Source: Acipenser ruthenus
Lineage: Eukaryota
Length of the DNA: 64,000 bases
NCBI RefSeq assembly: GCF_902713425.1
Contig: NC_081212.1
Span: 9,972,261-10,036,260, forward strand
Direction: 5' to 3'
Under the pieces are notes generated by a model. It had not been told where the DNA came from. It ran no database searches and saw only the letters and a program-made list of their open reading frames with translations. The position numbers were made by a program, and so were the translations under genes. Shown piece after piece: positions 530-44,827 of the stretch; positions within the stretch are counted from its first letter, which is position 1; every line of letters begins with the position of its first letter.

Positions 530-800
530 ACGAACAAGGACATTTACGAACAAGGATGTGGCCATTCGGCCCATCTAAGCTTGTCAAATTCCTAATAGCT
601 AATTGTTGAGTTTAGTCTAAAAGGATCCCAATGATTCAGCATCAACTACATGGCTAGATAGCCCATTCAATACCATCAACACTCTCTGTGTAAAGAAGTG
701 CCTCCTACCCTCTGTCCTAAGTCTATCTCCACTTAATGTCCAACTGTGTCCTCTGGTCCTGTTTCTGTGCTGCATGACTTCTACTGGTTCAGGTTAACTA
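530..800 (-). mobile_element. CR1-like LINE 3' UTR/tail fragment
   Basis: Shares GGCCATTCGGCCCATCT and GTGCCTCCTAC...CTCTGTCC motifs with the CR1 3' ends at 8281, 21039, 27140, 49321 and 50620-50830. Confidence 0.4.
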
Positions 801-1454: not shown

Positions 1455-2311
1455 TAACTATCACCAACTACGCCACCCAGCTCCTGGTCCAGGCCCTGGT
1501 ACACTCCCGCATAGACTACTGCAACTCCCTCTTGGCCGGCCTTCCTGCGTCCATCACCCGTCTCCTCCAGTTCATCCAGAACTCCTCTGCTCGCCTGGTG
1601 TTCTCTCTGCCTCGCTTCTCCCACACAACTCCACTGCTCCGCTCACTCCACTGGCTCCCGATCACCACTCGCATCCAGTTCAAGACTCTTGTACTCGCCT
1701 ACAGATGCCTTGACCAGACTGCACCCAGCTACCTCCAGACCTTCATCTCTCCCTACACCCCCACTCGACCTCTCCGCTCCTCCTGCACTAGAAGACTGGC
1801 TCTACCTCCTCTACGCTCCCCTGCCTCCAGGGTCCGCTCCTTCTCCACCCTCGCCTCGCAGTGGTGGAATGACCTTTCTACAGATGTCAGGACTGCCCAG
1901 TCCCTGACCACCTTCCAGCGCCTCCTCAAGACTCACCTCTTCAGACAGCACCTGTAGAACTCCTATTTTCCCTCTGGACACTTATCACTCTTCCCTTAAA
2001 TGCGATTTACTTGCTCTTATCTGCTCCCTATTTTACTGCATTTAATCCTGTACTTTAGAGTACTGTAATCTGTCACAAGTGTTATTTAATCTGTAGTATT
2101 TTGTATTTAATTATATCCTGATTTAACTATCACTGACACTGTTATCTTCTCCGTTATTGAATCGTGTTTTGTCATATACTTGTACTTGCTAGAACCGAAG
2201 TAATTGTATTTTATCTTTCTCTTTAATTGTATTAATACTTGTACTGTGATTCTTGAAATGTATTTTTGTTTACGACTGTAAGTCGCCCTGGATAAGGGCA
2301 TCTGCTAAGAA

Positions 2312-2371
<60 letters not shown>

Positions 2372-2372
2372 C
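1455..2372 (+). mobile_element. L2-clade LINE 3' end: ORF2 C-terminal domain (1455-1957) plus 3' UTR and (AAT)n tail
   Basis: Translation gives ...SRIDYCNSLLAGLP...LHWLPI..RIQFK...APSYL...LKTHLF, the characteristic L2 C-terminal domain. The 3' UTR ends in GTAAGTCGCCCTGGATAAGGGCATCTGCTAAG followed by (AAT)n at 2311-2372. Confidence 0.7.
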
Positions 2373-5212
2373 ATCTAAGTCTGAGAGTGTGAACTGTGTG
2401 ATTGTGTGGTTGTAAGTAATGATGTGACACTAAAAACTTTCAACGTGCCACTTAAAACAAATAAACCTGTGTCTTTGTTTCTATTTCATCTCTGACACAG
2501 CAATGAAAACCTGAATATGTTAAGAACAGACAGATCAGTCCCATGGAAAGGGATGTACCGGTGATCACGTTTCTATGTTTTGGTTCATTTCCCAAATAAT
2601 GACATTTGATGCTTCTGACCAGACTGTTAATCTGCTTTGTATGGTATACTTTTTAATAAATCTCAAACCACAAATCGATGAGTGCACAATCTCACAAGAG
2701 CTGCACAAGCATGTTGGTCGGGAGAGATCAGCGCCTCTACGTTTTAGCTTCTAACAGCTGAGCCCTCTGTATACCCATTTCCAAAAGCTCTGTGTTAAAA
2801 TGGCTTTTCACATTGTATTCCTTAACTACTGACACACATTCATTGCACAGTAAACACATTGGCTTTGCGCTTGGTACAGTTGGTAAAAAATATAAGTATT
2901 TACTGGTCCACTCATTGTTAAATCTACGATTTCCACCGATGTTTTCTCTTCTTACTAGCTAGAGTAGAGAGCCATGTTTATATCACTTAAAACAAACAAA
3001 CAAAAATGTAATAGCAAAACGAGTAAAAAATAAAAAACCACCCACAGAGTACACCAAGCGAAGCTCAGTGGAACTGGCTTGCACGAGTCGTGCAGAGTGG
3101 CTAGGGATGAAAAGGGGCGGTGTGATGAGAGCGCTGCTTTGCCAGACTCAAAAATAAAACACATCTTAAATCACAAATTGATTTATGATGTTACTATTTT
3201 GTTTTCGTTTTTTTTGTTTTTCATATTTATTTTAGTTAATTTTTATCATTTGTGTTGACGGTCGGCAGGCCGCCAGTTGAAGAGCCCTGCTGTACACTCT
3301 CCAATCATTTTTCCATCTTTCTAATTGCTTCCCACCCACCTCGTCTTTGTATTCCCTGAGTGCAATAAGTTGTGTTAGATATGGATAGATTAATTTGCTG
3401 CACGAGGTAACGGTTGCGGGGACCAGCATGTATTTACATTTACTGGATCTGAGGACAACCCAAGCCCCAGTACATTATTTGTCAGGAGGTTTTGTCAAAC
3501 AAAACTCTTAAACCTGTAAAATTAAAATGCCATTTATCTACAAAGCATTCAGAATGTGAAAAAATAAACACTTTTAAACAAAACAAAACAAAACAAAACA
3601 AAACAAAACAATGTGCAAAATGACAAAATTCCTTACTAAGATTCAAGCCCAGGAATCTCATGAAGTTAGGTATGTTATATAAATACTTTACTTTCTATGT
3701 GTACTTATACACACACATGCAAATTAGATTAAAAATGTTGTTGTGAAAAAATAGAGATGGCAAGCGGTCTGTGGCAAAAGTCCAAACACCAAGGTGGTCC
3801 CTGCCTTGAAAAAGGCTGGGACCAGTGTTCTAGGACATTCCTTTAGCCCTGGAATTAGTCTGGTTCATAGGACTCTCTCCAGGGCCACAGTGACCTTTTG
3901 GTGCTGTGGTGACCACAACTGGATCCGGTACTCTATAAGTGTAATCTCACCAGTGCAGTATTAATTGTTCAATGTCCACTTAGAGTTGAGACCACTTGGA
4001 ACCCGGGTTTCAGTCCAGGCCTCATAGCCCCTGTGCCTCTGCAGTTTGCTGCGGTAATGTCCCCCGCTCAGCAGTAACACAAGACAGTGCTTCCAGGAAC
4101 TCCTTGCACCGTCTTCTTGGAAAGTCTCCCCTAACAGTTCCACAATCTATTTCTGTAACATGCTGTACATGACAAGGAATTAAATACATGTCATCAATAC
4201 ACATAGATATCTGTCTCTCAGTACATTCACACATCAAGGATAGGGTTAGCATTGAATATTGCAGCACTTGACATTCTCCAGTCTTGTTTCTGGTACTTGA
4301 TTTTCTTATAGTCTTACCAGTGCATTATACAGTAAAACCTCATCATAACCTCTTTGGATTTGTACTCTGGCTGTCCAAGTCTGCTCAAGCATTTGCCTTT
4401 TTGATTGCTTCCACGCACAGTCGGGTTGCTGCAGCGACGAGTCTAACACAACATTGAGGGCTTTCTCTTGTGGGCCTGTTCTAGTTCTATACCGCCCATT
4501 TATGCGGAGCCTACATTTCTGTGACCAGGGTGTCACCATAATCTAATCTGAATTGTACTCTTTCGACAATGTAATAAAGGTGAGCAGATACTCATGTTCG
4601 TGAGTAATTAAGTTAGTTATTCATTCATTAAATAAAATGAGTCACTCAACACAAAATAAACCATTCCCTCGTTTGCCCTTGGCTACAGAACTATTGACGA
4701 CCGATCAATAACAATCTGAAAGTGAGATTTAATTTAGAACCTGTCATGATCAAACAAACTAAAACTACTCATTCTATAAGTGTCTTCCCTTTCTTTTATA
4801 CTTTTGTTATACAATCATTTTGATTTCACAATGTTAGAAATGCATCCTCTCTGCAGTGAACTGGGGGACTGTTATCCTGGGTGAGATGTAATCTCAGATT
4901 AAACTCCAGGGAAACACATCCCCAGTCTGCACAGCAGTAGAAATGTAATCTCATATTAAACTCAAGGGAAACACATTTTACAGTCCTGTGTGTTAAAAAT
5001 ATGTACAGACATTGTTCATAAGACTATGGGGTCTCCCAGTGTACCCTGAGAGTAAAAATATCAAATAAACATTCTGTAAATCAATGTCCTTAATAAAAGA
5101 CTTACATTATAAATTATATTATTATATCTTTTAACAAACCAAAATTTCAAAACGGTCAAGAAACTCAATACTTTGTATGGTGCTAGAACCCTGACAAGCA
5201 GAAAAAACAGAA

Positions 5213-5445
5213 CAGTTCAATTGGGATAAAGGAGCATTGACTTTTCTACAACACCAGGACACATTAAGTACGGTTCAATTGGGATAAAGGAGCATTGACT
5301 TTTCTACAACACCAGGACACATTAAGTACGGTTCAATTGGGATAAAGGAGCATTGACTTTTCTACAACACCAGGACACATTAAGTACGGTTCAATTGGGA
5401 TAAAGGAGCATCGACTTTTCTACCGCAGGACCAGGACCCATTGAG
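5213..5445. repeat. 58-bp minisatellite, about 4 copies
   Basis: GGTTCAATTGGGATAAAGGAGCATTGACTTTTCTACAACACCAGGACACATTAAGTAC is repeated in tandem. Confidence 0.9.
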
Positions 5446-6777
5446 TCTTTTTTTTTTTGCTGGTATTTTACACTCACAGTAAAGTCAGAATTTCAATCAT
5501 ACCGCACTGTGTGCACCTGAGTTTTGTGTGGATTCTGCTGCGTATCTCAAGATCTTCAAGAAGGGCCAGTCTTTCATGGTGAGCATGAAGAATGGCTACA
5601 TGTCTTGCATCATGGTGTTGCAGTATTTAGACATATTTACATTCACTTCGCACATGTGACTGCAGTGTTTCGTTATATGCATGAACATTATTTTTATATG
5701 TTATACTTCCTGCAATCTAGATATCTAGATATCTTAACATCTGGAGCTGTGATTTGGAACGTGGCTTCATTAACTTTATAGCTGCTGTGAAAAATAAAGA
5801 TTTGCATGAACTTTTAAACACAGGACTACACCTCACACTTCCTAATCTCTGGAAGTAATTCAGTGCACCCTTTTTTAAATGTGCGTATGCACTTATTATT
5901 TTGCTGTCGGTTTTCTTAATCTCTGCATATATGTTTCAAACCTGACACACAAAGAAAAGATGCACTTACAAATATTAAATGATCTGGATTAAATTACTAA
6001 ACACAGGCATGAAATATGGTCTTTATATTACTAAGAAAGCAGTTTTCATTTTAATATTTGAGATCAGCACTAAAGTGTATGAAGCCAGGGAGTAGTGGCA
6101 CTGGAGCTGTCCTCAAAGCATTGTGAACAGCTGACCCTTCACTGCATTGTACATGTCATTAAAACATGCACACACTAACTAGGGCTGGAACAATAAATTG
6201 ATAATATAATTTTTTTGCAGTGATAATTTTATCACGTTGAGAAAATATTACCGGTAATCATAATTGCCGTCTGTGACCCAGTGAAGCAGGAAACGTCACT
6301 GAACTGTCTGTGCAAGGTGTAAAACATGATCTGTGTGAGGACTGCGTACATTGGGAAGTACTGATTTTAAACAATATGCTTTTAACTTTGCGTCATGGTT
6401 TCATTTTGATAAGAAGTTGTACACTGGCAAAGCATGGCTGGTTTTCTAACATGAACACAAATATGTTTGTTTGTAAAATAAATAAACGCTAGCGCACTGT
6501 AAAATTACTGTAGAAAATCTGTTCCCATGGCGTTGCTATTGTAAAAAAAAAAGGTATAAATGAAAGATAGTTGGCTTTTAATGGAAGGAGAGGTGGTTTA
6601 TTTTATTAAACTGTCTGCATTCAAGCAGCCATGTGCAACTCAGTATGTTCCTAATATATATATTTTTTGTTAAACCTAGTTTAATTCTCTTAATGGCAAA
6701 TGCTTCCAGGTAACGTTAGCAATTTTGTTTCGTTATATTTAATACATTTGGTGGCAAATTAACAAATGTTTAAATAA

Positions 6778-6778
<1 letters not shown>

Positions 6779-6868
<90 letters not shown>

Positions 6869-6915
6869 TACATACATACACACACATATATACATACACA
6901 CACATATATACAATA
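6779..6915. repeat. (AT)n microsatellite followed by (CA)/(TACA) repeats
   Basis: Direct reading. The ORF 6759-7070 is a translation artefact of this repeat. Confidence 0.95.
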
Positions 6916-7217
6916 GGTGCATTTTTATACTCACGTTTGTTCTGGGCACCTACCAGAAATTTAAAAATTCTGCGCATACACTGTCTAGTTTTTTTTCTTC
7001 TAAACTCAATGACTATTAGACTGACAGTTATAATGCTGCTCAAGTATAAATTTGATAAGCATACAAGCACTTTATTTATTCAGATGATAATCACGATTAT
7101 TGTGATAATTTATAGATGAAAATGTCATTATCGTCCAACCCTAATACTAACTTACATTTACTAGTACTTGAAGTATTAAAATAATGTAGTCAAGCGGGCA
7201 CAGTTAAACCAGTCACT

Positions 7218-7220
<3 letters not shown>

Positions 7221-7281
<61 letters not shown>
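7221..7281. repeat. (AAT)n microsatellite
   Basis: Direct reading. Confidence 0.95.
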
Positions 7282-7785
7282 ATTTCCCATTGCTTTGTAT
7301 ATAACCTTTTCTTCATAAGAATCCAAAAGTTATAATCCAACGTGTGTCCAAAAGCAAACAGTAGCCTCTTTTCTAAACCTTATTCCCAGTGTAAAATACA
7401 AATTCCCTCACTGTAGCCTAACCAGAAAATACAGCTTTTTTTTGTCAATGTATATTATCAATCAATTTTTATTTTTAAATAGCGCCTTTCACAATAGATC
7501 GCCGCAAAGCGCTTTACAAGGATACAAACAATAAATATTACAAAAACTAACAATAAATATTACAAAAACTAACAATAAGCAGTAAAAACAAAACAATATA
7601 ACAGTAAAACAAGCAAGTAAGGGTAAGAACATTAAGATATATAAACTAGATTATAAAAATGTGTTTTTAATCTAGTTTTCAAAGCAGCGACAGTGGGAGC
7701 TTCCATATGAAATCAAATCACCAAAAACCTCAACCTCCTTTGATTTGTATACAAATGTCCATGCATGTTTGCCTTTGGGACAAGT

Positions 7786-8275
7786 GGTTACAGTGTACAT
7801 TTTAGGCCTGAGTGACACCCCGTTCATGAGATACAGCTCATCAAAGTTGACTCATTTTGGACCACCCACCCAACCTTTCCGTGGTCATAACTTCCTCCAT
7901 AATTGACACAGAAAGGTAGTTTTGGTGTTGTTTTAAAGCTCTCTAATAGCACTATCTTCTCATTTCTCAGGTTCTGTGAAGTGTACAATAAAAAAAGTTG
8001 TGTGACCTTTGATCTCACCCAGGTCAAATCGCATAACCGTGGATTTTTGTCAGTTTTTGATATATTTTAGCCTAGACCCTTATCTACATTTCCTGCAAGT
8101 TTCATTTTGTGCCTGCCATTGGTTGATACACAGCACAGAGTTGAATGCAGAGTGTCTGGTGAATCTTCTAAGTGAAGCGATTACACACCTATACAATTAA
8201 ACAAATATATTTAGTTATAATCGAGTATACTCACCTGTTAAATTGAAGCTGCAGTGAACTGGTGCAGCTGTAACA
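7786..8275 (+). repeat. Left arm of long inverted repeat (about 490 bp) bounding a 7.8-kb composite element
   Basis: Roughly 90% reverse-complement match to 15091-15592. The ORF pair 8009-8200(+) and 15174-15365(-) encodes almost the same peptide, which shows the inverted copy. Confidence 0.8.
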
Positions 8276-8280
8276 GATTC

Positions 8281-10110
8281 ATAAGAAAGTTTATAAACGA
8301 GAGGAGGCCATTCAGCCCATCTTGCTCATTTGGTTGTTAGTAGCTTATTGATCCCAGAATCTCATCAAGCAGCTTCTTGAAGGATGTCAGCTTTGTTTTA
8401 CAACATTATTGGGGGGTTGGTTCCAGACCCCTGGTCCTTGTTTCTTTTTTCAGGTCAAAAAAGTACCTTGGGTCCACATTGTCAATACCTTTTAGAATTT
8501 TGAATGCTTGAATCAGATCACCGCATAGTCTTTGTTCAAGACTAAATAGATTCAATTCTTTTAGCTTGTCTGCATATGACATGCCTTTTAAACCTGGGAT
8601 AATTCTGGTCGCTCTCTATGCACTCTTTCTAGAGCAGCAATATCCTTTTTGTAGCAAGGTAACCAGAACTGAACACAATATTCTAAATTAGGTCTTACTA
8701 ATGCATTGTAAAGTTTTAACATTATTTCCCTTGATTTAAATTCAGCACTTCTCAGTATATATCCAAGCATCTTGTTGGCCTTTTTTTATAGCTTCCCCAC
8801 ATTGTCTAGATGAATACATTTCTGAGTCAACATAAACTCCTAGTCTTTTTCATAGTTTCCTTCTTCAATTTCAGTATCTCCCATATGATATTTATAATGC
8901 ACATTTTTATTGCCTGTGTGCAGTACCTTACACTTTTCTCTATTGAATGTAATTTGCCATGTGTCTGCTTTTTGGAATTGGTTTTAGCCCCCTTGGCAAT
9001 GTTCATTTCTATCTCTCTCTTGGCCTTTCTAACTTGACTTGCGTTTGCAGTTCCAAGTACTCTGTGTACTTTGTTCTTGGTCCCTTTTAAACGCTCTGTA
9101 AAGTGCCTTTTTTCTCTGGATATTTTTTTAAATTGATCTATTAAACCATTTTGGCCATTTTGTTCTAGATTTAGATTTGTCTACTTTTGGGATGTAATTG
9201 TTTTGCGCCTCTAGTACTAAATTTTTTTTAAAAAAGCCATTCTTTCCCTGTGGGTGTTTTTTCTACTTTACTCCAATCTACTTCTGTTAGTCTCTGTTTC
9301 ATACCTTCATAGTTTGCCTTTTTAAAATTGTAAACCTTAACTTTAGTCATTACTTTTGGGGTTTTAAAAAGCACTTCAAATGACACAATGTTGTGGTCTG
9401 AGTTTGCAAATTCTTTCTCTGTTTTAGTTATTCTGTCTTCGTTCTTTGAAAAGACTAAACCAAGGCATGCCTCCCCTCTAGTCGGTGCAATGACAAATTG
9501 CGTCAGGAAGGAGTCATTTATCATTTCTACCCTTTCAATTTTGTCCGTCGTGCCCCCCATCGGGTTTTCCCATTTTATATGGGCGAAGTTGAAATCCCCC
9601 ATTAGTATGGCTTCTCCTTTTCTACACGCATTTCGAATGTCATTGTATAACAGATAATTTTGCTCGGTGCCTGAATTTGGCGGTCTATAGCATGCCCCTA
9701 TTATTATGCCCTTTGAATTGTTGTCCATTATTCTGACCCATATTGATTCGGCGTTGTTTTCTTCGTCCAGATTTAACACCTGTGCTTCAAGACTATTTCT
9801 TATGTATAGCGCTACCCCTCCGCCTCTTCTGTCCTGTCTGTCTTTCCTATACAGTGTGTACCCACTAATATTATATTCGTCTCCATCATAAACCAAGTTT
9901 CTGTAACACCTATCACATCGCAGTTACTTGTTAGTACAACATTTTGTTTCTGGGACTTCTAGCATTTAGATAAATACATTTACTGGCTATCTTACCTGAA
10001 TTGTTGCCCTTGTTTTGATGTGGTCTCCCTTCTGTTTTTTTGTTGATTACTCCCCAAATCCAATTTGGCCTATTAACACATGTGACTAAAGTGTAGCACA
10101 GGTGAATTAA
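8281..10110 (-). mobile_element. CR1-like LINE copy (internally deleted): 3' tail, RT C-terminal fragment and apurinic endonuclease domain
   Basis: 3' tail GAGGAGGCCATTCAGCCCATCTTGCTC...TTATTGATCCCAGAATCTCATCAAGCAGCTTCTTGAAGG starts at 8281. RT C-terminal motif ...[19 protein letters not shown] is at 8588-8770(-). Endonuclease ORF at 9228-9896(-) reads ...YNISGYTLYRKDRQDRRGGGVALYIRNS.... The 5' region is collinear with 29740-30170. Confidence 0.8.
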
Positions 10111-12382
10111 ATACAGATGAATAGTGAAATGTGTCCTTTATATAGTCCTTCCAGGATTCCGCGATCGCAGAAAAAAAATCACAGAATTTGTTCTCTCTCG
10201 CAGAATTTTCCCTGTACATGTCACTAGAGCGCATGCATGCTATTTGTATAGTGAGGAATGTGGCGAGCTTTAGTTCAGCCATGGAGACATTCCTAAGGCC
10301 ATCGGTGAGCTCCAGAAACAAATCTAAATTAGCACCGAATATAATGGCAAAAGATAGGGCACAAATGCAAAATGCAAGTCCAGTATTTCCAATAACTCAC
10401 CATAGCTCCTGTTAAAACAGCAGAAGACCGTGACAACGACCATGGAAAGACAAACAGTGGCTACTAAAGAACGAAATAAGGTAAGATTATTATTATTACT
10501 ATTATTTTACAAAAGGATTTCATAGTTTAGTCGCAAGTTCAAAGTGAAGCAATGTTCTCTTACTCCTATGTGAAAGGTCAGAGAAAAACCATTGCTTGTA
10601 CCTTGCTTGTACTCCCTATGCTGCAGGTCCTGAAAGATGTCATTCTAATTATATATGGAAATACACACGTATTTTGTACATGGTGTAGTAACATAAATGC
10701 TCAAAAAGCAAGGGGGCAGCGCACTATATTAGATATTATCCGATTACTTGGGATGACAACATTCTTGTGAAAATCCTCTTTTTTTAAAATCGTTACTTTC
10801 CTGTTTGTTTTGTGGTATGTGATGTAGCACTTTAACATTGTGGTCAAAGAAACATAAAAGCTAGTTTATCAGCCAATCAGTGTCGCCTGTCACTGTTTCC
10901 AAGCGCTTGTTGCAGTTTCCAAACTATTTCTATATGCTGTCTTGATGTAGATACGTTTTAGAATTATAACATTTTGGTGAACAACACATGTTTCTAAAAA
11001 TACCCTGTTACATCTGTACAAAAAGCCTCATATTTGGCTTTGCCAGCAATATTAAGGTCATTTACTTTAAGGCCCTGTCCATACTACATAACCAATCTCG
11101 AGAACTGTACTCAAAAACGTTTTAATTAAACCTGCTCAAACTTTAGCGTCCACACTGAAGTACCGTTTCATGTTTAGTCGGGCGTAATCCGTCCACACAC
11201 AGTCACCTAATTCAAGTCACCTAATTTAACGTTGTGCTTTTGTTATTTTCCTCACTAGTTTAACATCCTGACAGATTTTGTTAAACATAGAAATGAATAC
11301 CTAGTGCGGAGTGTACACTGATAGCAAGTCAATTGTCAATCTGAAGTTTTTTTGCTAAGCAGTCAGCATCTTCAGGGGATTCTCATGAAGAAGATCACCC
11401 CTCTGCATCTCAGCCATCTACTTCTGACTGTACGAGTACTACAGTGACCGAAGCAGTAGTAATGCACAAAAACGCAAACAAAAAATACCTTCTTTGAATG
11501 GGAGATGAAGTATCCATGGACTGTTTATTGAGACGGCAAGATGTACTGTGTGTGAAAAAGCTGCTGGGCAAAAAAAAAAAAAAAAAAAAAAAGCATATAC
11601 ACACAAATGTACAGATTTTCAAGAATCTTCGCTTAAGACACAGACACGGTGATGCTGTTGCTGTTATTGGAAAGCAGAAAAATATGAAAACACATGTAGA
11701 TGAAGGCAACAAACAGTGCTTAGAATCCCGTCTCGCTGTCATGCAAACGGCCTACTGTTAGTATGTAACAAAGAAAAAAAGAGTGTCTGTGTTCATATGT
11801 AGATCTGTACACAGACAGAGATTGTTTAAACTATGATATAGCACAGAGTTTAAACATTTATAAAAATGTACCAAAATGCACATCCCTGCAGTTTATTCAC
11901 CTTTGTGTTAAAATGTTGTATTTGATGGATGGGATGCAGATTTTTGGGCATGTGCGATTCAGGAACGCATGAACAGAAATGCAAGCGCGACCTCTGTTAA
12001 ATACTGGCAGTTGACTCTAATTTACAATAACGAGCCAACTGCCAAAACAATTAACACATAATCTATCAATTACACATTTTTGTATGGCAGGGTGATTTTA
12101 ACCCCTCCCCTGCCACAGTGTATTTTTTAAAAATAGCATCCAATAGTCAGTGCTGTAAGAGTTTTTGAAAAAGTGAACTCTCTTTGCTTTATTGTATGTG
12201 TGTGTTTTCTTCTTCTTTGATTTACAGAAAATATGGCAAACATGTTTGTTCTGGTTTTTTATATATATTTTAAACATGTATATATTACACTTACAAGTTG
12301 AACATTCTTGACATTAAATTTTGTAGCTAAAATTCTTGCAGTTTTGCAGTCTATTTCACATTGAAGACAATTTGTTGCATAA

Positions 12383-14650
12383 ATGGCAAGTACTTCCAAT
12401 GTCTTTCTTGGCATTAAATACATCAAAGCTTGCTGTGAACCATTTGCAAAGCATTGTGGAGAGCGCCACACTAAAGGTCGCACCTTAACAAAGAAGCAGA
12501 TCAAGGACCACCAGAAGCTGAACGTTGTGTATGGCCAGAAGTTCTGTTACCCTTGTATGAAGTTGCTAGCCCATCATCCTCCTGACCAAGACCAAACATC
12601 ACCTTCAACACAAAGTGACCACAAGGTGTCTAGTTCAGAGAATCCAGCCCTCATGCTGTTCAAGACAAACAACCTGAAAGCAATGACATTTTCAAAGCTG
12701 AAAAGGAACATGAGATTTCACAAATAAACAAGGCCTTGGAGGCAATGCAAGAATCTCCACTGAAGAGAAGGAAACTGTCATAAAAGGTAAATGCAGTTCA
12801 GAAAGTAAAGAAGGTCGGAGAAGCAATGAAGAGAAAGCTAAGAAAGGTTTTCCCACAAACAGAAATGGAAGACCGTGAAACAATCAAGGAGCAGGCTCAG
12901 GCATCGATGATGGCCCAGTTGAAGGAAAAATGTAATTCAAATATCAGACGAAGTCAGTAAGTTCATATTTTGACAGCTGCCTCAATGTCTTGGTCTATAC
13001 GGAGGACTGCTGCTGAGTTTGGTGCTACCTCCCACATGTCCAGGACAGCCGAGGCTTTACAGGAAGAGAAGAGATGCCTATCGGATTCAAATCCAAACAT
13101 TGGGGGGAGAACACTCACAGAGGAGCTTGCTCAAATGGTAAAATTGTTCTACAACAGGGAAGATGTTAGTCGACTCATGGCTGGAGAGAACTATTTTGTT
13201 TCTGTTTACAATAAAGAGTCGGGAAGGAGGAAGCACCAACACAAACGGCTTGTTCTATGCTATCTTTCAGAGGCCTGTCGTTTCTTCAGATTACAGCATC
13301 CTGACATTAAGATCGGCTTCTCCAAATCTGCAGAGCTGAAACCAAAGGAGAGTGTATTGGCAGGCAGTAGCGGTACACATTTTGTGTGTGTCTGCACAGC
13401 ACACCAGAATGTAAAGCTGATGTTCATTTGTTCTTCCACAAGTGAGTGCCAGTACAGAAGTGCCTTTGATTCACTATCAACATTTCTTACCTTATCTCAG
13501 GAGTTCCCCACCTAACGTCGATTGCCACTTAGGAAAGTATGAAAATTGTCCATTATTCACGAGTCATCTACAAATGCTCTTTCAAGATAGCCTGGTGGAC
13601 TCAGTAGAGTATCGGAAGTGGGCTACAACTGACAGATCCACCCTTCAGACAATCAATGAACCTGTTGATCAGTTCATAGAGACTTTCAAAAGCCATCTGC
13701 AACGTCTTCGTCGACATGATCTCATAGTAAAGATGCAGATTGCATATTATCAACAGCTGAGGGATGAACTCCTTCAAGAAAATGAATTCCTCGTTGTTGG
13801 TGATTTTGCAGAAAACTTGACTTTCGTCATGCAAGATGAAGCACAATCACACCATTGGCACAACTCTAAGGCAACCATACATTATTTTGTTTGCTATTGG
13901 CAAGACAAAGATGAGAATTCTCAGCACATCTCATATGTTGCAGTATCAGAATGCAAGACTCATGACACAGCCTTTGTTTATCTTTTTCAAAAGCATATTT
14001 TGAGGTTCTTGGAGAACTAATTTAGGCGCTCAAGAAAAATCTATTAATTCTCTGACGGGTGTGCAGGACAATATAAAAACTGTAAAAATGTCCTCAACAT
14101 TTGGCAGCACTTGGAAGATTTTGGCGTGGAAGCAGAGTGGAACTTCTTTGCAACACCTCATGGCAAAGCACCCAGTGATGGTGTAGGAGGAACCATTAAA
14201 CGAATGGCAACAAAAGCCAGTTTGCAGCGTCCATACCATGACCAGATCCAGACTCCACACCAATTGTATAGGTTTGAAAAAGACAACATTCCTGCTCTTG
14301 AAGTAGAATACTTCACGATAGCACAATGGCAAACGGAGCAAGATTTTCTGAAGCAAAGATTCCTCAAGGTAAGAACCATGCCTGGCACACGGCATCTCTA
14401 CTTGCATGAGAGTTCTCCCAGTCAACAAAGCAAAGAGAAAAATCAATCACAGTCAAAGAGGTTGTCCTACCATTTGACCAAGTGAAAGAATATGTTACTG
14501 TTCAGTATGACAGTCACTGGTGGCTCGGGCTGGTGGTGTCTGCTGATCAGAAGAAACAGGAGGCTGAAATTAACTTCCTGCACCCGAATGGACCAGCACA
14601 ATCTTTCTGTTTCTCACATCGTCCAGATCAATTTATTGTAGACACAGGGA
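12383..14650 (+). pseudogene. Frameshifted transposase-like ORF of an unclassified DNA-transposon family (N-terminal Cys-rich region, CxC motif, DFAEN / SDGCAGQYKN / HGKAPSDGVGG motifs, C-terminal YDSHWWLG...FLHPNGP domain)
   Basis: Four successive + strand ORFs in shifting frames (12383-12727, 12970-13515, 13442-14020, 14111-14485) are collinear and read as one roughly 700-aa protein. Candidate splice signals are a donor at about 14368 (AAG|GTAAGAACC) and an acceptor at about 14877. The ORF lies inside the inverted-repeat-bounded element. Confidence 0.55.
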
Positions 14651-15090
14651 TGTGCTGACATCAGTGGAGCCAACAATTGTAACAGGAAGGACATACACCC
14701 TGAGAGACAAGGAGATGCCAAAGCATCAAAAGCCTTGACAGAGTGGCAACGAAGGAAAAGGGCAACTTAAGCATAGGTGAGTGGTAAACTGTGTTGCTTG
14801 CAGAATTATAAGGACAGAGACCTGAAAATGAAATATCTACATTTCCACCACTTCTAACAATACATTTTCTTTTCCAGGCTCAGTGATTCATTGGATTTGA
14901 ATAGTGGTAATTACAGCTCCTGGAGAAGCATCACTTAAAATACCAAACATGTGCTGACAGATGTACCACTGGTGGGGACAAAATTAAACGTGCACAATTC
15001 AGAATTGATTTATATTTAATTCACCTTTATTTGTTTGTTTCAGCCAATTGTGTAAATAGGGAACCTTGGTTAATTTGTTAATATATTAAT

Positions 15091-15592
15091 AGCTGTTACA
15101 GAAGCACCAGTTCACTGCAGCTTCAATTTAACAGGAGAGGAGAGTATACTCGATTGCAAATAAATATATTTGTTTAATTGTATAGGTGTGTAATCGCTTC
15201 ACTTAGAAGATTCACCTGACACTCTGCATTCAACTCTGTGCTGTGTATCAACCAATGGCAGGCACAAAATGAAACTTGCAGGAAATGTAGATAAGGGTCT
15301 AGGCTACAATCTATCAAAAACTGACAAAAAACCACAGTTACACGATTTGACCTGGGTGAGGTCAAAGGTCACACAACTTTTTTTTTTTTATCTTGTATTT
15401 CACATCAATTGAATGGATAGTCCTATTTGGGAGCTTTAAAACGACACCAACATCAGCTTTCTATGTCAATTCTGGAGGAAGTCATGACCATGTAAAGGTA
15501 GGGTGGGTGGTCCAAATCAGGTCAAGCTTTGATGACCTGTATCTCATGAATGGGAGGTCACTCAGGATTACAATTCACAGTGTAACCATGTG
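15091..15592 (-). repeat. Right arm of long inverted repeat (partner of 7786-8275)
   Basis: Reverse complement aligns to 7786-8275 with a few indels. Confidence 0.8.
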
Positions 15593-15599
15593 CAAAAGT

Positions 15600-15900
15600 T
15601 TACCACAATCAGAGGAGGTCAAGTGAAAAACGGCATATGGAATGACCCTTTCTTTACAGTGCTAGGCAGGTCATTCCATAATTTAGGGGCTTTATTGTTG
15701 TGTTTTTTTCTGAGTTTTGGGAATATGAAGTAACTCTGCATCCTGTGAACGGAGTGAGTGTCTAGGAACATATGGGGTTAAAAGATAATTTAATAAGATG
15801 GGGCAAGGCCATTTAAAGCCTTGTAGGCCTTCAAATCTAAACTGGACAGGAAGCCAGTGCAAAGATGCTAACACAGGGGTAACGTGTTCTTGTCTCTTAG
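15600..15900 (-). mobile_element. L2-clade LINE C-terminal fragment (minus strand)
   Basis: ORF 15692-15874(-) reads LHWLPVQFRFE...LLTPYVPRHSLRSQDAELLHIPKTQ. Its continuation in another frame reads APKLWNDLPSTV. Both are L2 ORF2 C-terminal motifs. The fragment abuts the right inverted-repeat arm. Confidence 0.6.
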
Positions 15901-16540
15901 GTTAAAAGGTCAAAAGAAGCATTTTTGTACAAGCTGCAGACAAGAAATAACATGACTATACCAGAGAAAAGGGCATTACAGTAATCAGTCCTTGAAGATA
16001 CAAAAGCATGCATCAGTTTCTCAGCATCTGGTCAGGAAAGAATACTTTTCAATTTGGCGATATTTCTTAGATGAAAGAAAGAGATTTTGGTAACATTTCT
16101 AATGTGCGGTTCAAAAAATGATCTGGGTCAAAGATCACTCCTAAGTAGGTCTGTCAAACGATTAAAAAAAATGTATCTTAGTTAACCTTGGTTTTAATCG
16201 CATATTTAATTGATACAATTACAGCATCCATCTCAAACATGGCAAACCAGGGTAAACTGGTCCTCCTATTTGTATGATACATAATAAAGATCAAATGGTT
16301 GATCTTTCTGTTAAAAGACAAACCTTAAATGAGACAGGGAGACTACGTAATGATACCGACTATAAAATCCACTTACTCTTCATTCAAGAACCACTTGGTG
16401 AACTCCAGTGAAGTATGTTGTGTGGTCTTGTACCACGACACAAATGATACATACCGCTATTCCGATACGATGTATCATGTACCTAAAGTATTCATCAATA
16501 CACAATGAATCATTACACCCCTATTCAAAACATAACTTAC

Positions 16541-16727
16541 CTTTAAACCCCTCTTCATCCACAATAATGGTATAGTCCTCCGGTGTTTCTGTCAGAGTGA
16601 AGAATTTACACCTACGAGAACGGGAGAGAGTTTTTACAAAAGCTATCGCTAAGTATTTATCAACTTTCAGCAAAAATGTGGCCCACTCAAGCATTTGTAA
16701 ATACTGATTTACACCAAGAAGATGCAT
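16541..16727 (-). CDS. First coding exon of a CASTOR/GATS-like (cytosolic arginine sensor for mTORC1) family gene; donor AAAG|GTAAGT; phase 1
   Basis: Translation is MHLLGVNQYLQMLEWATFLLKVDKYLAIAFVKTLSRSRRCKFFTLTETPEDYTIIVDEEGFK. This matches the remembered N-terminus of CASTOR1/2 (...RCKFFSLTETPEDYT[LM/II]VDEEGF...) at about 20 of 24 residues in the core. A canonical GTAAGT donor follows immediately on the minus strand. Confidence 0.6.
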
Positions 16728-16730
16728 GAC

Positions 16731-16942
16731 ATTATTATTATTATTATTAATTTCTTAGCAGACACCCTTATCCAGGGCGACTTACAATTGTTACAAGATA
16801 TCACATTATTTTTACATACAATTATCCATTTATACAGTTGGGTTTTTACTGGAACAATCTAGGTAAAGTACCTTGCTCAAAGGTACAGCAGCAGTGTCCA
16901 GTCAAGAGACCAGAGCCCTAACCACTACTCCACACTGCTGCC
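16731..16942 (-). mobile_element. tRNA-derived SINE (family B), minus orientation, with internal deletion of the B-box region
   Basis: Matches 29846-30091. tRNA-like head GGCAGCAGTGTGGAGTAGTGGTTAGGGCTCTGG. Tail TTGTAAGTCGCCCTGGATAAGGGTGTCTGCTAAGAAATTAAT(AAT)n. It sits 4-18 bp upstream of the CASTOR-like ATG. Confidence 0.8.
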
Positions 16943-17186
16943 TAATGTGCTGAAACAACCTAATGTGCTGCTAGGGTGCGATTTTAGAGTTAGTCAGGGA
17001 TAATGTAGCTGCCTCTCCCAGTGTATACCCTGATGGCATTTGAAAGGCAGGAGCACGAAAATAAGGAAGTTATAATCCCACCCACCCAGAACCACCAAAG
17101 CCGTCATTTTGACTGCCTTTTACAATACATGTTTTTATTTTGAATATAACCTACAATAGTCTATTTTATTTTTATATACACGCCTG

Positions 17187-17414
17187 TTGCTATCTCTACT
17201 GGACCTGGCAGCCATCAATTCCTTCGTTTTGTACAAGGAATGCCCCAGGGAAAATATCAGTAGGAGAGATTTCTTCTTGAAGCTAGCCACAGCGCTTCAG
17301 CAGAAACATTTTGATCAGAAAACTGCAAAGCAGCAGGCTGCAGCAGCTCAACCTGGACTCTGTGCTGCACCGAGTGACACAAACGCAAGAGAAAACATGT
17401 TACTTTCGTTTTAA
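17187..17414 (+). mobile_element. piggyBac-like transposase C-terminal fragment
   Basis: ORF reads LLDLAAINSFVLYKE...ISRRDFFLKLATAL, which resembles the conserved piggyBac C-terminal region. Identified from memory only. Confidence 0.35.
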
Positions 17415-18639
17415 GTTTTGTACGTACATATACCTGTTTACAAACTAGTTTCTTTTGAAATGTTTATTTTATTATAGTTTTTCATTTTTTGAAGCACTGC
17501 TTTATATGTGTTTATAAGTTAGAAAATAAACTTATGTTTAATTTAAATACGGCGTTTCGGCTGTGCAGATGTTTGATATGACGTGCTTGAATAAAACTTT
17601 GGAGTTGTATCCAATAGTTTGTCTTTCATTTTAATACTAATGTTGTTTAAAATGTACCATGATAATGACTACCGGCGGTGGGTTTAGGTATGAGTATAAC
17701 CGTGGCGGTTCTAGTGTTAAACTAATTTCATCTAAAGCCAGAATAGCAACAATTAAAAAAAACAAAAAAAAACACTGACTACTGTATCTTCATAGGACAC
17801 AAGCTATGACTAATGTTCATAACATATACTGTATGATTTTTCACACCCTGATTACAAAGCGAAATCTGTGCCATTAACAAATACAAAATGAACAGGACTG
17901 TATAATAGTTTGACTCAGAGTAGTGAACCGTTATAGTTGGTCGTGTACAAGTACGGTATCAGTAGTATAAATACATATTTACATTAATAAGGACACTGCA
18001 GATCGTTTCAGATTTTTGCTGGATTAATCATCTCCTGTACGCTTAAAAAGGGTGCGAGTTCTGTGGGGTATTTATACTTCCAAGAACTTTTTACACAGCC
18101 TGCTACATTGATTTTAGTAAAATAATTATAACTCCTCCCGTTTGAACAACCTTGTGTGAACAGTCAGTTAACATCAGAGCATAACTCCAAACCACGTGCA
18201 GTTTAGCAGCGCTCTGACAAAACGCATGATTGTCTTTGAAGCCTCTTTAAATCTAGAGTTCCCTGCTTTTTTGTTTAATGCATTTTCTGCTTTCTTTCGC
18301 CACCTGGTGGAAAGACTGTGCAGTGCAGAAGGGTTAACTATTGGCTCATTCTAGCTCAAGTCTATGGAATTGTTGAAATAAACCATGGGCACTGATTCCA
18401 GGGAGAAATCTAGGTCTTTCAAGTGGCCCCTACCCTAGGTTAAAATTCAGCTGTGTTTCAAAATGTACTATAATGCCCAAACAAACTGGACTTAAAGTAA
18501 GGAAGGGCTTGAAACCTGATACAGTCTCCTTATGAATCAAATATGCTTTAACAAATCATGTACTTCTCTATGCTAATAAACCGTGTTGTTGTATTGCTAT
18601 TGGAGGGCACCCCATTGTGATTGAACCATTCATTTATAT

Positions 18640-19021
18640 AGGAGGTTGGTCAGCGATATTCTGTTTAATTTAGTCAGCCGTAGTGGGAGCACAGTGACAA
18701 AGAGTACAAATCCCTACTCCCTGATAGTGGCCCGCTCTGCACTCTGAGGGTAAGGTTTAGGAAGAAAGGAGTGGTTGCGTTTTGTGTTCGGGCTTCACAA
18801 CTGAGGAACTCTGCCCATCATGTCGGAGGTTAGCCCACAGTGGCTACTTTTAAATCAAGTCTTAAGGCTTACGTCATGGTTATTTTAACTGTTTTATTAT
18901 TATTATTTTCATTTTATGAGTATTTTTGTCCTCTGTTAGTGTTTTTATAATATCTGCCTGTTTTATTTTAACTTGTGTGAAGTGCCTTGAACCTCGCGGC
19001 ATGAAAGGCACTCTATAAACA

Positions 19022-19069
<48 letters not shown>

Positions 19070-19075
19070 GAATAA
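18640..19075 (+). mobile_element. LINE/SINE 3' UTR-type repeat with GCGC-stem tail and (ATT)n
   Basis: Ends GTGAAGTGCCTTGAACCTCGCGGCATGAAAGGCACTCTATAAACACATT(ATT)n. Related tails occur at 7465-7520(-), 35560-35725, 41880-41960 and 63770-63850. Confidence 0.4.
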
Positions 19076-20685
19076 TAAGAATAATAAGAACAATAAGAAT
19101 AATAAACTATAAACCTGACTTGTGGCGTAAATCCTTGTAGCATAGTCAGCATTCCATTAATAAACCCCAACTGTTTTGACACACATAACTAGCGTGTTTA
19201 TCAAAACACAGGCCCCTTTTTAAAACAAGCAAACAAATGACATGCATTCTGTATTTAAATATTCTTCGCGTTTCCAAAAATGAACACTGGGGGCCGGTAT
19301 TTCAAAGCCCCGCCCCCTCATAAAACACATTAAGCAGCATTTTTATTGCATATCAGCAACACAGAGAACGAAGTTATTAATTATTCGCACTGTTGACACT
19401 GTATCCGGTAACTTGTGACAAATTCGACTTTAGTAACTCTATTTGCAAATCACTTGGTTCGCATTTATAATCGCTGCATTTTTCATGTTTTTCACTGTTC
19501 TGCTTACCTTGTTTTGGAGGGCAGGAAGGCGAGTTTGATTAATCCGTGTGTGAAAAACTGGATCCCTTCTTTTGCTATGCTAGCTACTTTTAAACTGTGC
19601 TCTAAAATATGCAGCTCCATCTTTTACGTCTTCTCATTTGCATATATCTAAAATCCTGGATATCAATTTTTTATGTATTTATATTATATTTGTATTTATA
19701 TCGCTAAAATAAAGCTTTGAAAAGCTAGTGACTGTAGTGAAAAAAAGTTCTCGGTTAAGGGAGAAACGGAAACAGCAGTAACACAAGTGGAGAAAAAGAA
19801 AAAGCGGAGTTAGGAAAATAGCAAAGAAAAAAGAGAAAGAGAGAGAGAAAGTCCCCGTGTTTTCTCTGCTGAGAGGAGTTGGAATAGTCCAGCAGCTGGG
19901 TACAGTGTACAAACAACATGTCATTCAAACCAAGGGAGGGCGGTCCAAGTATGGTCTCATACACGGATGCATGATGGGACTTGTAGTTTTTTTAAAAAAA
20001 ATCCCTATATATCCTACATGTAGTTTAACAACAATCTGTTACAATCGTGTTTTAGGTGATGGTGAACAATACAAAAGTACACTTACCTGTAATTTCTTGA
20101 TGTTTGTTACAGCCAAAAACAAATATTATATTCTCTTACATTGTACTTACAGTAAAGGGGTTGTAGCTAACAAAATAATTCCCTAAATCTTACCTGTTGT
20201 CACTTCCATTCGTTACAGGCCTCAATTGTACAGTTTTGAAAGACACCCATGTTATAGTAACCATGTGTTGTTATTTAAAATGTGATAGCTGGTGCTATAC
20301 TAGGTTCAATACATACTTCTGCAAGCTATTCTTTCAAATGGTGTTGTGCTTCCTTGGTAATTTCCCCAATCATTGAATTGCTTCTTTCCTGTCAGTAACC
20401 CACCAGACATAAAGCAATTAAGAACTTTCTTTAACCTAATGTATCAAATATCATGTTTTAAAATGAAAATACATGTTTGTTATACTGATAATCGGGATTG
20501 CTGCTTAAATGGGAATACAGCTCTGGGAGACGGTTCTCTCCAATGCTATTTATGTCGTTTAATTGAGACGTCACTTCGTTTAATTGGGATACAGTATTTT
20601 CAAATGATGAATGGAGATTGCTTTTCAGAGCAGTACAGTGAGTCTGTGATTACGCTGTGACTTGTGTAATTGTGTAACGCCTGTC

Positions 20686-27139: not shown

Positions 27140-30100
27140 ATATCTTTGCTTGTTTGGTTGTTAGGAGCTTATTGATCCCAGAATCTCATCAAGCAGCTTC
27201 TTGAAGGTTCCCAGGGTGTCAGCTTCAACAACATTACTGGGGAGTTGGTTCCAGACTCCCACAATTCTCTGTGTAAAAAAGTGCCTCCTATTTTCTGTTC
27301 TGAATACCCCTTTGTCTAATCTCCATTTGTGACCCCTGTTCCTTGTTTCTTTTTTCAGGTTGAAAAAGTCCCCTGGGTCAACATTGTCTATACTTTTTAG
27401 AATTTTGAATGTTTGAATCAGATCGCCGCGTAGTCTTCTTTGTTCAATACTGAATAGATTAAATTCTTTTAGCCTGTTATGACATGCCTTTTAAACCAGG
27501 AATAATTCTGGTCACTCTTCTTTGCAGTCTTTCTAAACAGCAATATACTTTTTGTAGTGAGGTGACCAGAACTGAACACAATATTCTAGATGAGGTCTTA
27601 CTAATGCATTGTAAAGTTTTAACATTACTTCCCTTGATTTAAATTCACTTTTCACTATATATCCCAGCATTTTGTTGGTCTTTTTTATAGCTTACCCACA
27701 TTGTCTAGATGAAGACATTTCTGAGTCAACATAAACTCCTAGGTCTTTTTAATAGATTCCTTCTTCAATTTCAGTATCTCCCATATTGTATTTATAATGC
27801 ACATTTTTATTGCCTGCATGCAGTACCTTAAACTTTTCTCTATTAAATGTAATTTGCCGTGTGTCTTCCCAGTTCTGAATGCTGTCTAGATCATTTTGGA
27901 TGAACTTTGCTGCTTTTTTGTGTCATCTGCAAATTTTACAAGTTTGCTTACTATACCAGAATCCAAGTCATAAATGTAGATTAGGAATAGCAGAGGGCCT
28001 AATACTGATCCCTGTGGTACACCACTGGTTACCTCGCTCCATTTTGAGGTTTCTCCGCTAATCAGTACCTTCTGTTTTCTGCATGTTAACCACTCCATAA
28101 TCCATGTGCATACATTTCCTTGAATCCCTATTGCGTTCAGTTTGATAATTAATCTTTTATGCAGGACTTTGTCAAAAGTTTTCTGGAAATCTAAATAAAC
28201 CATGTCATATGCTTTGCAATTATCCATTGTTGATGTTGCATCCTCAAAAAAATCAAGCAGTTTAGTTAGACACGATCTCCCTTTCCTAAAACCATGCTGA
28301 CTGTCTCCCAGGATACTGTTACCATATAGGTAATTTTCCATTTTGGATCTTATTATAGTTTCCATAGGTTTACATATAATAGATGTCAGGCTTATTGGTC
28401 TGTAGTTACCTGGTTCGGTTTTGTCTCCCTTTTTGTGGATCGGTATTACGTTTGCAATTCTCCAGTCTGTCGGTACAACCCCTGTCTCAAGAGACTGATG
28501 CATGATCTTGGTTAGTGGTTTGGAAATAACTTCTTTCATTTCTTTGAGCAATATTGGGAGGATCTCATCTGACCCAGGGGATTTGTTTATTTTAAGAGCT
28601 CCTAGTCCCTTTAACATTTCTGCCTTGGTTATGCTAAAGTTATTTAAAACAGGATAGGAACAGTTAGACATGTGGGGCATGTTGTCCGTATCCTCCTTTG
28701 TAAAAACTTGTGAAAAGTACTCATTTAATATATTTGCTATTTTTTTCTCTTGGTCTATGATTTTGCAATGTATATCTCTTAGCCATTTAACCTCCACTTT
28801 GAATGTTCTCTTGCTATTATAATATTGGAAAAACTTTGTGGAATTGGTTTTATGCCCCCTAGCAATGTTCATTTCTATCGCTCTCTTGGCCTTTATAACT
28901 TCCTTTTTGATTTGCATTTGCAGTTCCAAGTACTCTTTCTGTGTACTTTTTTCTTGGTCCCTTTTAAACGCACTGTAAAGCGCCTTTTTTCGCTGAATAT
29001 TGTTTTAATTGATCTATTAAACCATTTTGGCCATTTTGTTTTAGATTTAGATTGGTCTACTTTTGGGATGTAATTGTTAAAAAACAGCCATCCTTTTTCT
29101 GTGGATGTTTTCTCTATTTACTCCAACTTCTATTAGTCTGTTTCATACCTTTATAGTTTGCCTTGTTATTTTTGGGGTTTTAAAAATCACTTAAAATGAG
29201 ACCATGTTGTGGTCTGAGTTTGCCAATGGTTCTCTGACCTCTGTTTTAGTTATTCTGTCTTTGTTATTAGAAAAGACTAAATCAAGGCATGCCTCCCCTC
29301 TAGTCGGTACCTTGACAAATTGCGTTAGGAAGCAGTCATTTGTCATTTCCACCATTTCAATTTCATCTGTCATGCTCCCCACCGGGTTTTCCTATTTTAT
29401 ATGGGGGAAGTTGAAATCCCCCATTAGTATGGCTTCTCCTTTGCTACACGTATTTCTAATGTCATTGTATAACAGATTATTTTGCTTGGTGTCTGAATTT
29501 GGTGGTCTGTATGTAGCATGCTCCTATTATTATGCCCTTTGAATTTTTGTCCATTATTCTGACCCATATTGATTCAGCGTTGTTTTCTTCGTCCAGATTT
29601 AACACTTGGGCTTCAAGACTATATCTTATGTATAGCACTACCCCTCCGCCTCTTCTGTCCTGCCTGTCTTTCCTATATAGTGTATACCCACTAATATTAT
29701 ATTCGTCTTCATTACTCTCAGATAACCAAGTTTCTGTAACACCTATCACATCGTAGTTACTTGTTAGTACAGTAGCTTCAAGTTCTAACATTTTGTTTCT
29801 AATACTTCTAGCATTTAGATAAATACATGTAATGGCTGTCTTACTATTATTATTATTATTATTATTATTTATTTCTTAGCAGACGCCCTTATCCAGGGCG
29901 ACTTACAATTGTTACAAGATATCACATTATTTTTACATACAATTACCCATTTATACAGTTGGGTTTTTACTGGAGCAATCTAGGTAAAGTACCTTGCTCA
30001 AGGGTACAGCAGCAGTGTCCCCACTGGGGATTGAACCCACAACCCTCCGGTCAAGAGTCCAGAGCCCTAACCACTACTCCACACTGCTGCCCCTGAGTTG

Positions 30101-42922: not shown

Positions 42923-43032
42923 GTACATTCTTTTCCTGATTTGCCAGACAAAAAGCTGTTATAAAGACTGAATCCAATTACCAGACCTCTTTTTAAGAGT
43001 AGATACAATGAAACAATCTTGAAAATGTAAAA

Positions 43033-44780: not shown

Positions 44781-44827
<47 letters not shown>

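Follow-up and report, generated by a model that had tools for sequence, protein, structure and literature searches.

A CASTOR-like reading frame beside a SINE in Acipenser ruthenus joins the end of an intron to exon 2 of a CASTOR2-like gene

Within a 64,000 nt stretch of the Acipenser ruthenus genome (contig NC_081212.1, positions 9,972,261 to 10,036,260 of the forward strand; hereafter the window, to which all coordinates refer), an ATG-started open reading frame (ORF) of 68 aa on the minus strand (16521..16727) carries the CASTOR core RCKFFTLTETPEDYTIIVDEEGFK near its end. This ORF is a composite, in which the final 120 nt of intron 1 of a CASTOR2-like gene run into exon 2. Exon 2 (16541-16611), the CASTOR-coding part, is an unremarkable internal exon, and both the adjoining SINE and the ATG at 16727 are located in intron 1. 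That the ORF unites the end of intron 1 with a CASTOR2-like exon 2, and that the gene continues past the window, is very probable given the exon boundaries, reading phases, family membership, conservation and selection described below; the same reading predicts an active promoter upstream of exon 1 and further exons outside the window.

Exon structure and conservation of the CASTOR2-like gene

The CASTOR match of the ORF is far above chance, with tblastn E-values of ~1e-10 to 1e-13 and a Pfam Castor1_N score above the curated cut-off, which upholds the initial annotation in its recognition of a genuine CASTOR/GATS-family coding exon. The GTAAGT donor reported for this exon is also real, as GGGTTTAAAG ends at base 16541 and GTAAGT comes next, forming the consensus AAG/GTAAGT (slashes mark splice junctions); the ORF itself ends in ...SRSRRCKFFTLTETPEDYTIIVDEEGFKGKLCFE and a stop codon. 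The exon had been described as a lone one, but a tblastn search of the whole window with CASTOR sequences gave a second strong match at 19620..19507 (MELHILEHSLKVASIAKEGIQFFTHGLIKLAFLPSKTR, E=4e-13), and this second CASTOR exon (19508-19620) encodes the true N-terminus. The probes in these searches were human CASTOR1/2 sequences, of which the exon 1-2 part agrees with the PDB chains and the exon 3-4 part gave strong matches in the comparison loci. The features of this part of the gene are:

19508..19620, minus strand: coding part of CASTOR2-like exon 1, 113 nt, encoding MELHILEHSLKVASIAKEGIQFFTHGLIKLAFLPSKT plus AG, with donor AG/GTAAGC (tblastn E=4e-13)
16612..19507, minus strand: intron 1, 2,896 nt, GT...AG, with splice sites taken from the sequence; holds the SINE and the spurious ATG
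16612..16730, minus strand: intronic spacer from the SINE tail to exon 2, with the ATG at 16725-16727, 39 in-frame non-CASTOR codons, a polypyrimidine tract and AG
16541..16611, minus strand: CASTOR2-like exon 2, 71 nt, encoding (R)CKFFTLTETPEDYTIIVDEEGFK plus G, with donor AAG/GTAAGT

Exon 1 starts with an ATG in a AAAAGATGG context, has an in-frame stop two codons upstream of this ATG, and ends with ACA AG/GTAAGC. At the other end of intron 1, a polypyrimidine-AG acceptor (16613-16612, CTCTCTCCCGTTCTCGTAG/G) is located directly before the conserved peptide and reads on as GTGTAAATTC. Joining position 19508 to 16611 creates an Arg codon (AG+G) and keeps the frame, and the 113 and 71 nt together encode MELHILEHSLKVASIAKEGIQFFTHGLIKLAFLPSKTRCKFFTLTETPEDYTIIVDEEGFK and leave a single base over (phase 1). 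It is by chance that the ORF continues across the acceptor: 'ag' from the intron and the first G of the exon read AGG (Arg), which is the same amino acid as that formed at the AG/G junction, so that the unspliced ORF seems to enter the CASTOR core smoothly.

The gene structure was compared with loci from Sparus aurata (L001), six fish contigs from NCBI assemblies (L002-L007) and the thrush Turdus rufiventris (L008). Exons 1, 2 and 3 were found in this order in 7/7 fish loci, and the exon 1 donor and the exon 2 acceptor and donor have equal codon positions and phases in the window and in all of L001-L007, with exon 1 ending 2 nt beyond codon 37, and with exon 2 spanning 71 nt and ending in phase 1. 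The exon 2 boundaries of the thrush locus are equal to those of the window as well, and the acceptor is at the same position of exon 2 in 8/8 comparison loci. A blastn comparison of the whole window with the loci identified only three conserved blocks, one covering exon 2 and its splice sites (16535-16613), one covering exon 1 and a 33-nt leader (19500-19653), and a third further upstream (19853-19943). Conservation therefore ends at the acceptor, without reaching the ATG at 16727 or the SINE, and no cross-species DNA conservation was detected by blastn inside intron 1 (16612-19507). The window differs from each of the fish loci by 21-26 synonymous and 4-6 non-synonymous changes, and the resulting dN/dS of ~0.025 (Nei-Gojobori) indicates that exons 1 and 2 are both under strong purifying selection.

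These results bear directly on the gene model of the initial annotation, in which the ORF was a first coding exon starting at ATG 16727, with a SINE-derived 5′ UTR or promoter, or else preceded by a non-coding exon spliced to an AG in the SINE tail. The position of the SINE (16731-16942) next to the ORF was given correctly, with its tail ending 3 nt upstream of the ATG, and the frame from ATG 16727 into exon 2 is indeed free of stop codons and in frame with the CASTOR core, but this model is almost certainly incorrect. Residues 1-31 of the ORF are without any Castor1_N match, and residues 32-62 cover only profile positions 23-53 (54.5 bits), compared with positions 1-53 and 101.5 bits for the spliced 61-aa peptide (PF18700, cut-off 26.5); the ATG at 16727 is thus not followed by the N-terminus of the family, and conservation ends at 16613. 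The canonical exon 1, with the MELHILEH N-terminus, is located 2.9 kb upstream and splices in phase to the acceptor at 16613-16612, which makes the flagged exon an internal one and places the real start codon at 19620. This upstream exon is coding, unlike the non-coding exon offered as an alternative. The SINE copy also lacks the B-box-like segment. Finally, the AG in the SINE tail (CTGCTAAG/AAATTAA) is not needed as an acceptor, and when joined to exon 1 gives AG/A AAT TAA, an immediate stop within three codons.

The SINE in intron 1 and the region upstream of the start codon

The SINE and the conserved upstream elements are located as follows:

16731..16942, minus strand: SINE copy in gene sense in intron 1 (repeat family D11), with a tRNA-like head and an (AAT)n tail
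16747..16798, minus strand: SINE 3′ tail resembling the UnaL2 LINE 3′ element (Rfam RF00436, model positions 1-54, E=1.9e-6; its 44 bits fall short of the gathering score, 55)
29848..30091, minus strand: second, undeleted SINE copy between the two genes of the window, 97% identical over 169 nt
19621..19653, minus strand: conserved 5′ leader, CAAATGAGAAGACGTAAAAG followed by ATGG; the blastn block reaches 33 nt upstream of the ATG
19853..19990, minus strand: conserved upstream block, a putative core promoter/TSS region, with an M4/SBS-type motif, a GC box and CCAGCTGCTGG

The SINE contains GGCAGCAGTGTGGAGTAGTGG and GGCAGCAGTGTGGAGTAGTGGTTAGGG in its head, and only 3 nt separate the end of its (AAT)n tail from the ATG at 16727. 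Two dispersed copies sharing this head and the (AAT)n tail are present in the window. The intron 1 copy has a 28-nt deletion relative to the copy at 29.8 kb, which removes GGAGGGTTGTGGGTTCAATCCCCAGTGG including the B-box-like GGTTCAATCCC; inspection by eye recognised an A-box-like TGGAGTAGTGG in both copies, and the B-box-like motif in the 29.8-kb copy only. ARAGORN called no tRNA in the window, and the description of the SINE head as tRNA-like rests on these box motifs recognised by eye. No target-site duplications flanking the intron 1 copy were found by inspection.

Nothing suggests that this SINE has a role in the gene. The gene model given above could be accompanied by a minor SINE-linked isoform, produced by a cryptic acceptor and exonisation or by an alternative start, which would be likely to be targeted by NMD or to be altered at the N-terminus. 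The SINE is in gene sense at only ~120 nt upstream of the acceptor, its tail carries CTGCTAAG/A, and there is the stop-free frame from ATG 16727 into exon 2, but the region is not conserved, use of the tail AG leads to a premature stop, and a purine-rich stretch (GGATAAGGGTGTCTGCTAAG) takes the place of a polypyrimidine tract before this AG, which together make such an isoform very improbable.

The exon 1 start codon is preceded by conserved sequence, rather than by the SINE-derived 5′ UTR or promoter that had been proposed. The last ~25 nt of the leader before the ATG are near-invariant in the alignment, Sparus included, and further upstream the block 19853-19943 is conserved by blastn against L002-L007. 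Alignment showed that ACTACA..TCCCA.CATGCA, CCGCCC and CCAGCTGCTGG are conserved, 230-370 nt upstream of the ATG. The upstream block contains ACTACAAGTCCCATCATGCAT, which at 19975-19987, as the motif copy ACTACAAGTCCCA, fits ACTAYRNNNCCCR, the M4 / THAP11-ZNF143 consensus (PMC5006282; also PMC3627581). The M4 pattern is found 5 times in the window versus 0.54 expected, a count which alone means little, with some of the matches in repeats; the copy at 19975-19987 is the only one within a cross-species conserved block, and is kept in L002-L005. From its conservation and motif content, we infer that the block at ~19853-19990 is the likely promoter of the CASTOR2-like gene. It is clear that nothing SINE-derived is located before the true start codon (19620).

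Intron 2 and the PARP4-like neighbour

Downstream of exon 2 and on the far side of the CASTOR2-like promoter region, the window contains:

1..16540, minus strand: 5′ part of intron 2, leaving the window; transposon-rich, with no exon 3 match
7984..15390, no strand assigned: ~7.4-kb element in intron 2 with inverted repeats of at least 253 nt (94% complementary, 93% in the alignment of the arms)
9228-9896, minus strand: nested LINE endonuclease fragment (Exo_endo_phos match) within the 7984-15390 element
33465..63447, plus strand: PARP4-like gene, from MGVFEKC... to the vWA region (18 collinear tblastn matches, E down to 3e-29)

The earlier observation that later CASTOR exons are missing downstream stands, as none was detected in 1-16540 by either approach. 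In tblastn searches of the whole window with CASTOR1/2, run at word size 2 and E-values up to 1000 both with composition adjustment and without it, no match downstream of exon 2 exceeded ~20 bits, and blastn against the loci containing exons 3 and 4 gave no window match to the DNA of these exons; exon 3 is missing from the entire window by protein and DNA comparison alike. The inverted-repeat element, which had been placed in intron 1, sits in intron 2, and other transposon-like ORFs are present in the 16.5 kb downstream of exon 2. Elsewhere, exon 3 is ~200 nt long and highly conserved (ELPxSExxSVADATWLALNVVSGGG...STYQTDFILV), scoring 122-124 bits in L002-L006, and it is located 0.6-1.9 kb after exon 2 in 7/7 fish loci. 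In the thrush locus, no exon 3 is present in the gap-free sequence of at least 28 kb downstream of exon 2, by which comparison a long intron 2 is normal outside teleosts. Most likely, intron 2 of the window gene (>16.5 kb) runs off the window, and the remaining exons would be located beyond base 1.

The lack of exon 3 in these 16.5 kb, set against its close spacing in the fish loci, would also be seen in a truncated relic, in which the promoter and CASTOR2 exons 1-2 were kept and exons 3 onward were lost, either in a decaying duplicate or by rearrangement or transposon-mediated deletion. Intron 2 is packed with transposons, and two of the assemblies each contain two gene copies (L002/L006 and L003/L007), pointing to duplicates or separate haplotypes in related fish; furthermore, a recent truncation would not show in dN/dS. 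We nevertheless consider a relic unlikely, as neither exon is disrupted, the splice sites are of consensus type and the phases correct, dN/dS is ~0.025, the promoter block and the 5′ leader are still conserved, and the same intron measures at least 28 kb in the thrush. In addition, the introns of the PARP4-like gene in the window are likewise several kb long and transposon-rich, as would be expected if introns are long throughout this genome.

The initial annotation was right in describing the gene as divergent from PARP4, with PARP4-type exons on the plus strand in a head-to-head arrangement. The tblastn query was a human PARP4 sequence. Pfam matches on the window peptides were, in order, BRCT_2 (22.8 bits, below cut-off), PARP (28.2 and 36.1 bits) and VIT (49.4 bits), and the vWA exon, without a Pfam match, was detected with E=5e-20 to the PARP4 sequence; the domain order is thus that of PARP4 (BRCT, PARP catalytic, VIT, vWA). 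The first coding exons of the CASTOR2-like and PARP4-like genes are ~13.8 kb apart, and in the gap, remnants of DIRS-like elements and LINEs are found together with a 92-nt tandem array and the second copy of the SINE. This interval is not a compact bidirectional promoter. The PARP4 neighbourhood gave no matches in L001-L007, which extend only 10 kb upstream, with PARP4 being at least 13.8 kb away in the window.

In the gene model that we favour, transcription would proceed on the minus strand from the conserved non-SINE promoter block at ~19853-19990, and translation would start at ATG 19620. Exon 1 (19508-19620) would be spliced across the 2.9-kb intron to exon 2 (16541-16611), the two exons together encoding residues 1-61 and with them the greater part of the first ACT domain, and the GTAAGT donor of exon 2 would open the >16.5-kb intron 2, with the other exons beyond base 1. 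The SINE would be an old retroposon, shortened by an internal deletion and ending in a tail of L2/UnaL2 type, inserted in intron 1 at ~120 nt upstream of the acceptor, and the ATG beside its tail would open a chance stop-free intronic frame into exon 2. Two less ordinary outcomes, in which the locus is a constrained two-exon CASTOR2 remnant giving a short ACT1-only peptide or a regulatory transcript, or in which the SINE supplies a lineage-specific first exon or start and so an N-terminally altered CASTOR2, are between them decidedly unlikely. The gene is an ordinary, already known one.

For annotators, the corrected model places the likely promoter at ~19.9 kb and the two exons at 19508-19620 (exon 1) and 16541-16611 (exon 2), with the SINE inside intron 1 and an intron 2 that is long and filled with transposons. 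The correction illustrates that an ORF running from an ATG to a donor and containing a conserved core need not be a first exon; it does not change what is known of CASTOR proteins, of arginine sensing by mTORC1 or of SINE biology.

Family assignment and comparison with known systems

The spliced peptide gives ungapped alignments with human CASTOR2 (PDB 9kpb_A, 101 bits) over residues 1-60 of both, and with CASTOR1 (5i2c_A and others, 89 bits) over residues 1-61 of both. In a large protein collection, the best named matches were annotated as 'cytosolic arginine sensor for mTORC1 subunit 2', with ~90% identity over matches that are short fragments of at most 106 aa; this is the full name of CASTOR2, formerly GATSL2, with CASTOR1 being GATSL3. 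The window gene is probably an orthologue of CASTOR2 rather than CASTOR1, an assignment based on 61 residues.

As a homodimer or as a heterodimer with CASTOR2, CASTOR1 binds GATOR2 and inhibits mTORC1 (PMC5187391). Arginine releases CASTOR1, and CASTOR2, which does not bind arginine, remains on GATOR2 (PMC5187391). The proteins of this family are ~330 aa long and contain four ACT domains (ACT1-4), of which ACT1 comprises residues 1-75 (PMC5187391). The residues described as distinguishing CASTOR1 from CASTOR2 are at positions 108-110 and 302, and the CASTOR2-type residues are Q/N/I at positions 110-112 and K at position 303 (PMC5187391); all are encoded beyond the window. The same applies to the GATOR2/Mios-binding patch (Y118/Q119/D121) and to S111 and D304 of the arginine pocket (PMC5187391).

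In common with CASTOR1 (GATSL3; 5i2c, 5gs9 and 5gt7), the window gene has membership of the Castor1_N family and the layout MELHILEH...RCKFF.LTETPEDYT..VDEEGFK. It differs from CASTOR1 in its lower score (89 versus 101 bits for CASTOR2) and identity (~69% with mammalian CASTOR1 fragments versus ~90% with CASTOR2), and in reading DYTIIVDEEGF where CASTOR1 has DYTLMVDEEGF. The likeness to human CASTOR2 (GATSL2; 9kpb) extends over the ungapped residues 1-60, including this DYTIIVDEEGF type, and the ~90% identity includes the annotated CASTOR2 proteins of Sparus and Mauremys; the exon boundaries and phases match those of the CASTOR2 loci in seven fish contigs and a thrush. At position 61, human CASTOR2 has Leu, whereas the window gene has Lys, like teleost CASTOR2 and human CASTOR1. 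Compared with full-length CASTOR2, the window holds residues 1-61 only, which is most of ACT1, and its intron 2 is longer than in the teleost CASTOR2 loci (>16.5 kb versus 0.6-1.9 kb).

The SINE can be compared with eel UnaSINE1 and the UnaL2 class. The 3′ hairpin of UnaL2 is recognised by the reverse transcriptase of the partner LINE, and a tail shared between LINE and SINE has been described (PMC1636434). Both SINE tails in the window resemble the UnaL2 3′ element and are followed by a short simple repeat, with the tail of the 29.8-kb copy, too, aligning over the full RF00436 model (48.4 bits, E=1.6e-8), and the A-box-like TGGAGTAGTGG in the head and the B-box-like GGTTCAATCCC in the intact copy may be further points of likeness. 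The differences are that neither tail, at 44 and 48.4 bits, reaches the Rfam gathering score, and that the flagged copy is without the B-box-like segment. The sequence fits a placement with the SINEs whose 3′ tail is taken over from an L2-clade LINE.

The flagged ORF itself also has counterparts among the spurious read-through ORFs of ORF-based gene calls. Four database entries (P0033, P0036, P0044 and P0059) contain an unrelated N-terminal peptide followed by RCKFFSLTETPEDYTIIVDEEGF, which shows that they are intron read-through miscalls like the 68-aa ORF; simple ORF calling frequently runs from the intron into this exon, which has been miscalled in several species in public protein collections. 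The likeness lies in the fusion of an unrelated N-terminal peptide to the RCKFF core, as in the 68-aa ORF, and there is no difference of weight, the frame in the window merely happening to open right after a SINE tail.

Inverted-repeat element and tandem arrays

The second intron of the CASTOR2-like gene contains an element of about 7.4 kb bounded by inverted repeats, and three tandem arrays were detected in the window, one between the CASTOR2-like and PARP4-like genes and two within PARP4 introns:

7984–15390, element of about 7.4 kb with inverted-repeat arms of at least 253 nt (93–94% identical), CASTOR2 intron 2
21668–22223, tandem array, period 92 nt, 5 copies, between the two genes
39583–40120, tandem array, period 34 nt, about 16 copies, PARP4 intron
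42992–43311, tandem array, period 40 nt, about 8 copies, PARP4 intron

Within the 7.4-kb element, several plus-strand ORFs of 110–190 aa are located at 12383–14485, none of which had a match in Pfam, and a LINE endonuclease fragment is nested on the minus strand (9228–9896). The element may be a DNA transposon that is either non-autonomous or unclassified.

LINE, DIRS-like and SINE sequences

Retroelement-related sequences were found at the following positions:

27889–29875 and 30849–31214, minus strand, LINE remnants with endonuclease and reverse-transcriptase ORFs
23067–25128, plus strand, stretches without stop codons that, on visual inspection, show DIRS-like hallmarks

Fragments of the LINE recur at three sites in the window (8450–9886, 27355–29712 and 49424–50217) with 90–94% identity, which indicates activity of this family in the fairly recent past. 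At about 29.85 kb, the 5′ end of the LINE adjoins the second copy of the SINE. The DIRS-like stretches, in which an RNase H-like motif (LHINMLELQAVSLA...VRTDNITVVVYVNHQ) and a tyrosine-recombinase-like motif (...AITSAKRVSELQALS) were recognised by eye, lie where the GC content of the window peaks, with a value of 0.50 at 22–24 kb.

Directly 5′ of the head of the SINE in CASTOR2 intron 1 (16943–16985, minus strand) there is a direct duplication, CAGCACATTAGG...CAGCACATTAGG, with the spacer TTGTTT, which may represent either part of the 5′ end of the SINE or a feature of the insertion site.

CASTOR2 in public proteins and other fish assemblies

In the public 'proteins' P0033, P0036, P0044 and P0059 of the protein collection, the core of CASTOR2 exon 2 is fused to unrelated intron-encoded peptides. 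Read-through mis-annotation at this exon is an error that recurs in different species.

Two fish assemblies each carry two distinct contigs with CASTOR2 exons 1–3 (L002 and L006 in GCA_977065575.1, L003 and L007 in GCA_977066275.1), with slightly different lengths of intron 1 between the contigs, and exon 3 varies at one residue across the set (ELPESE versus ELPVSE). These paired contigs could represent gene duplicates or separately assembled haplotypes.
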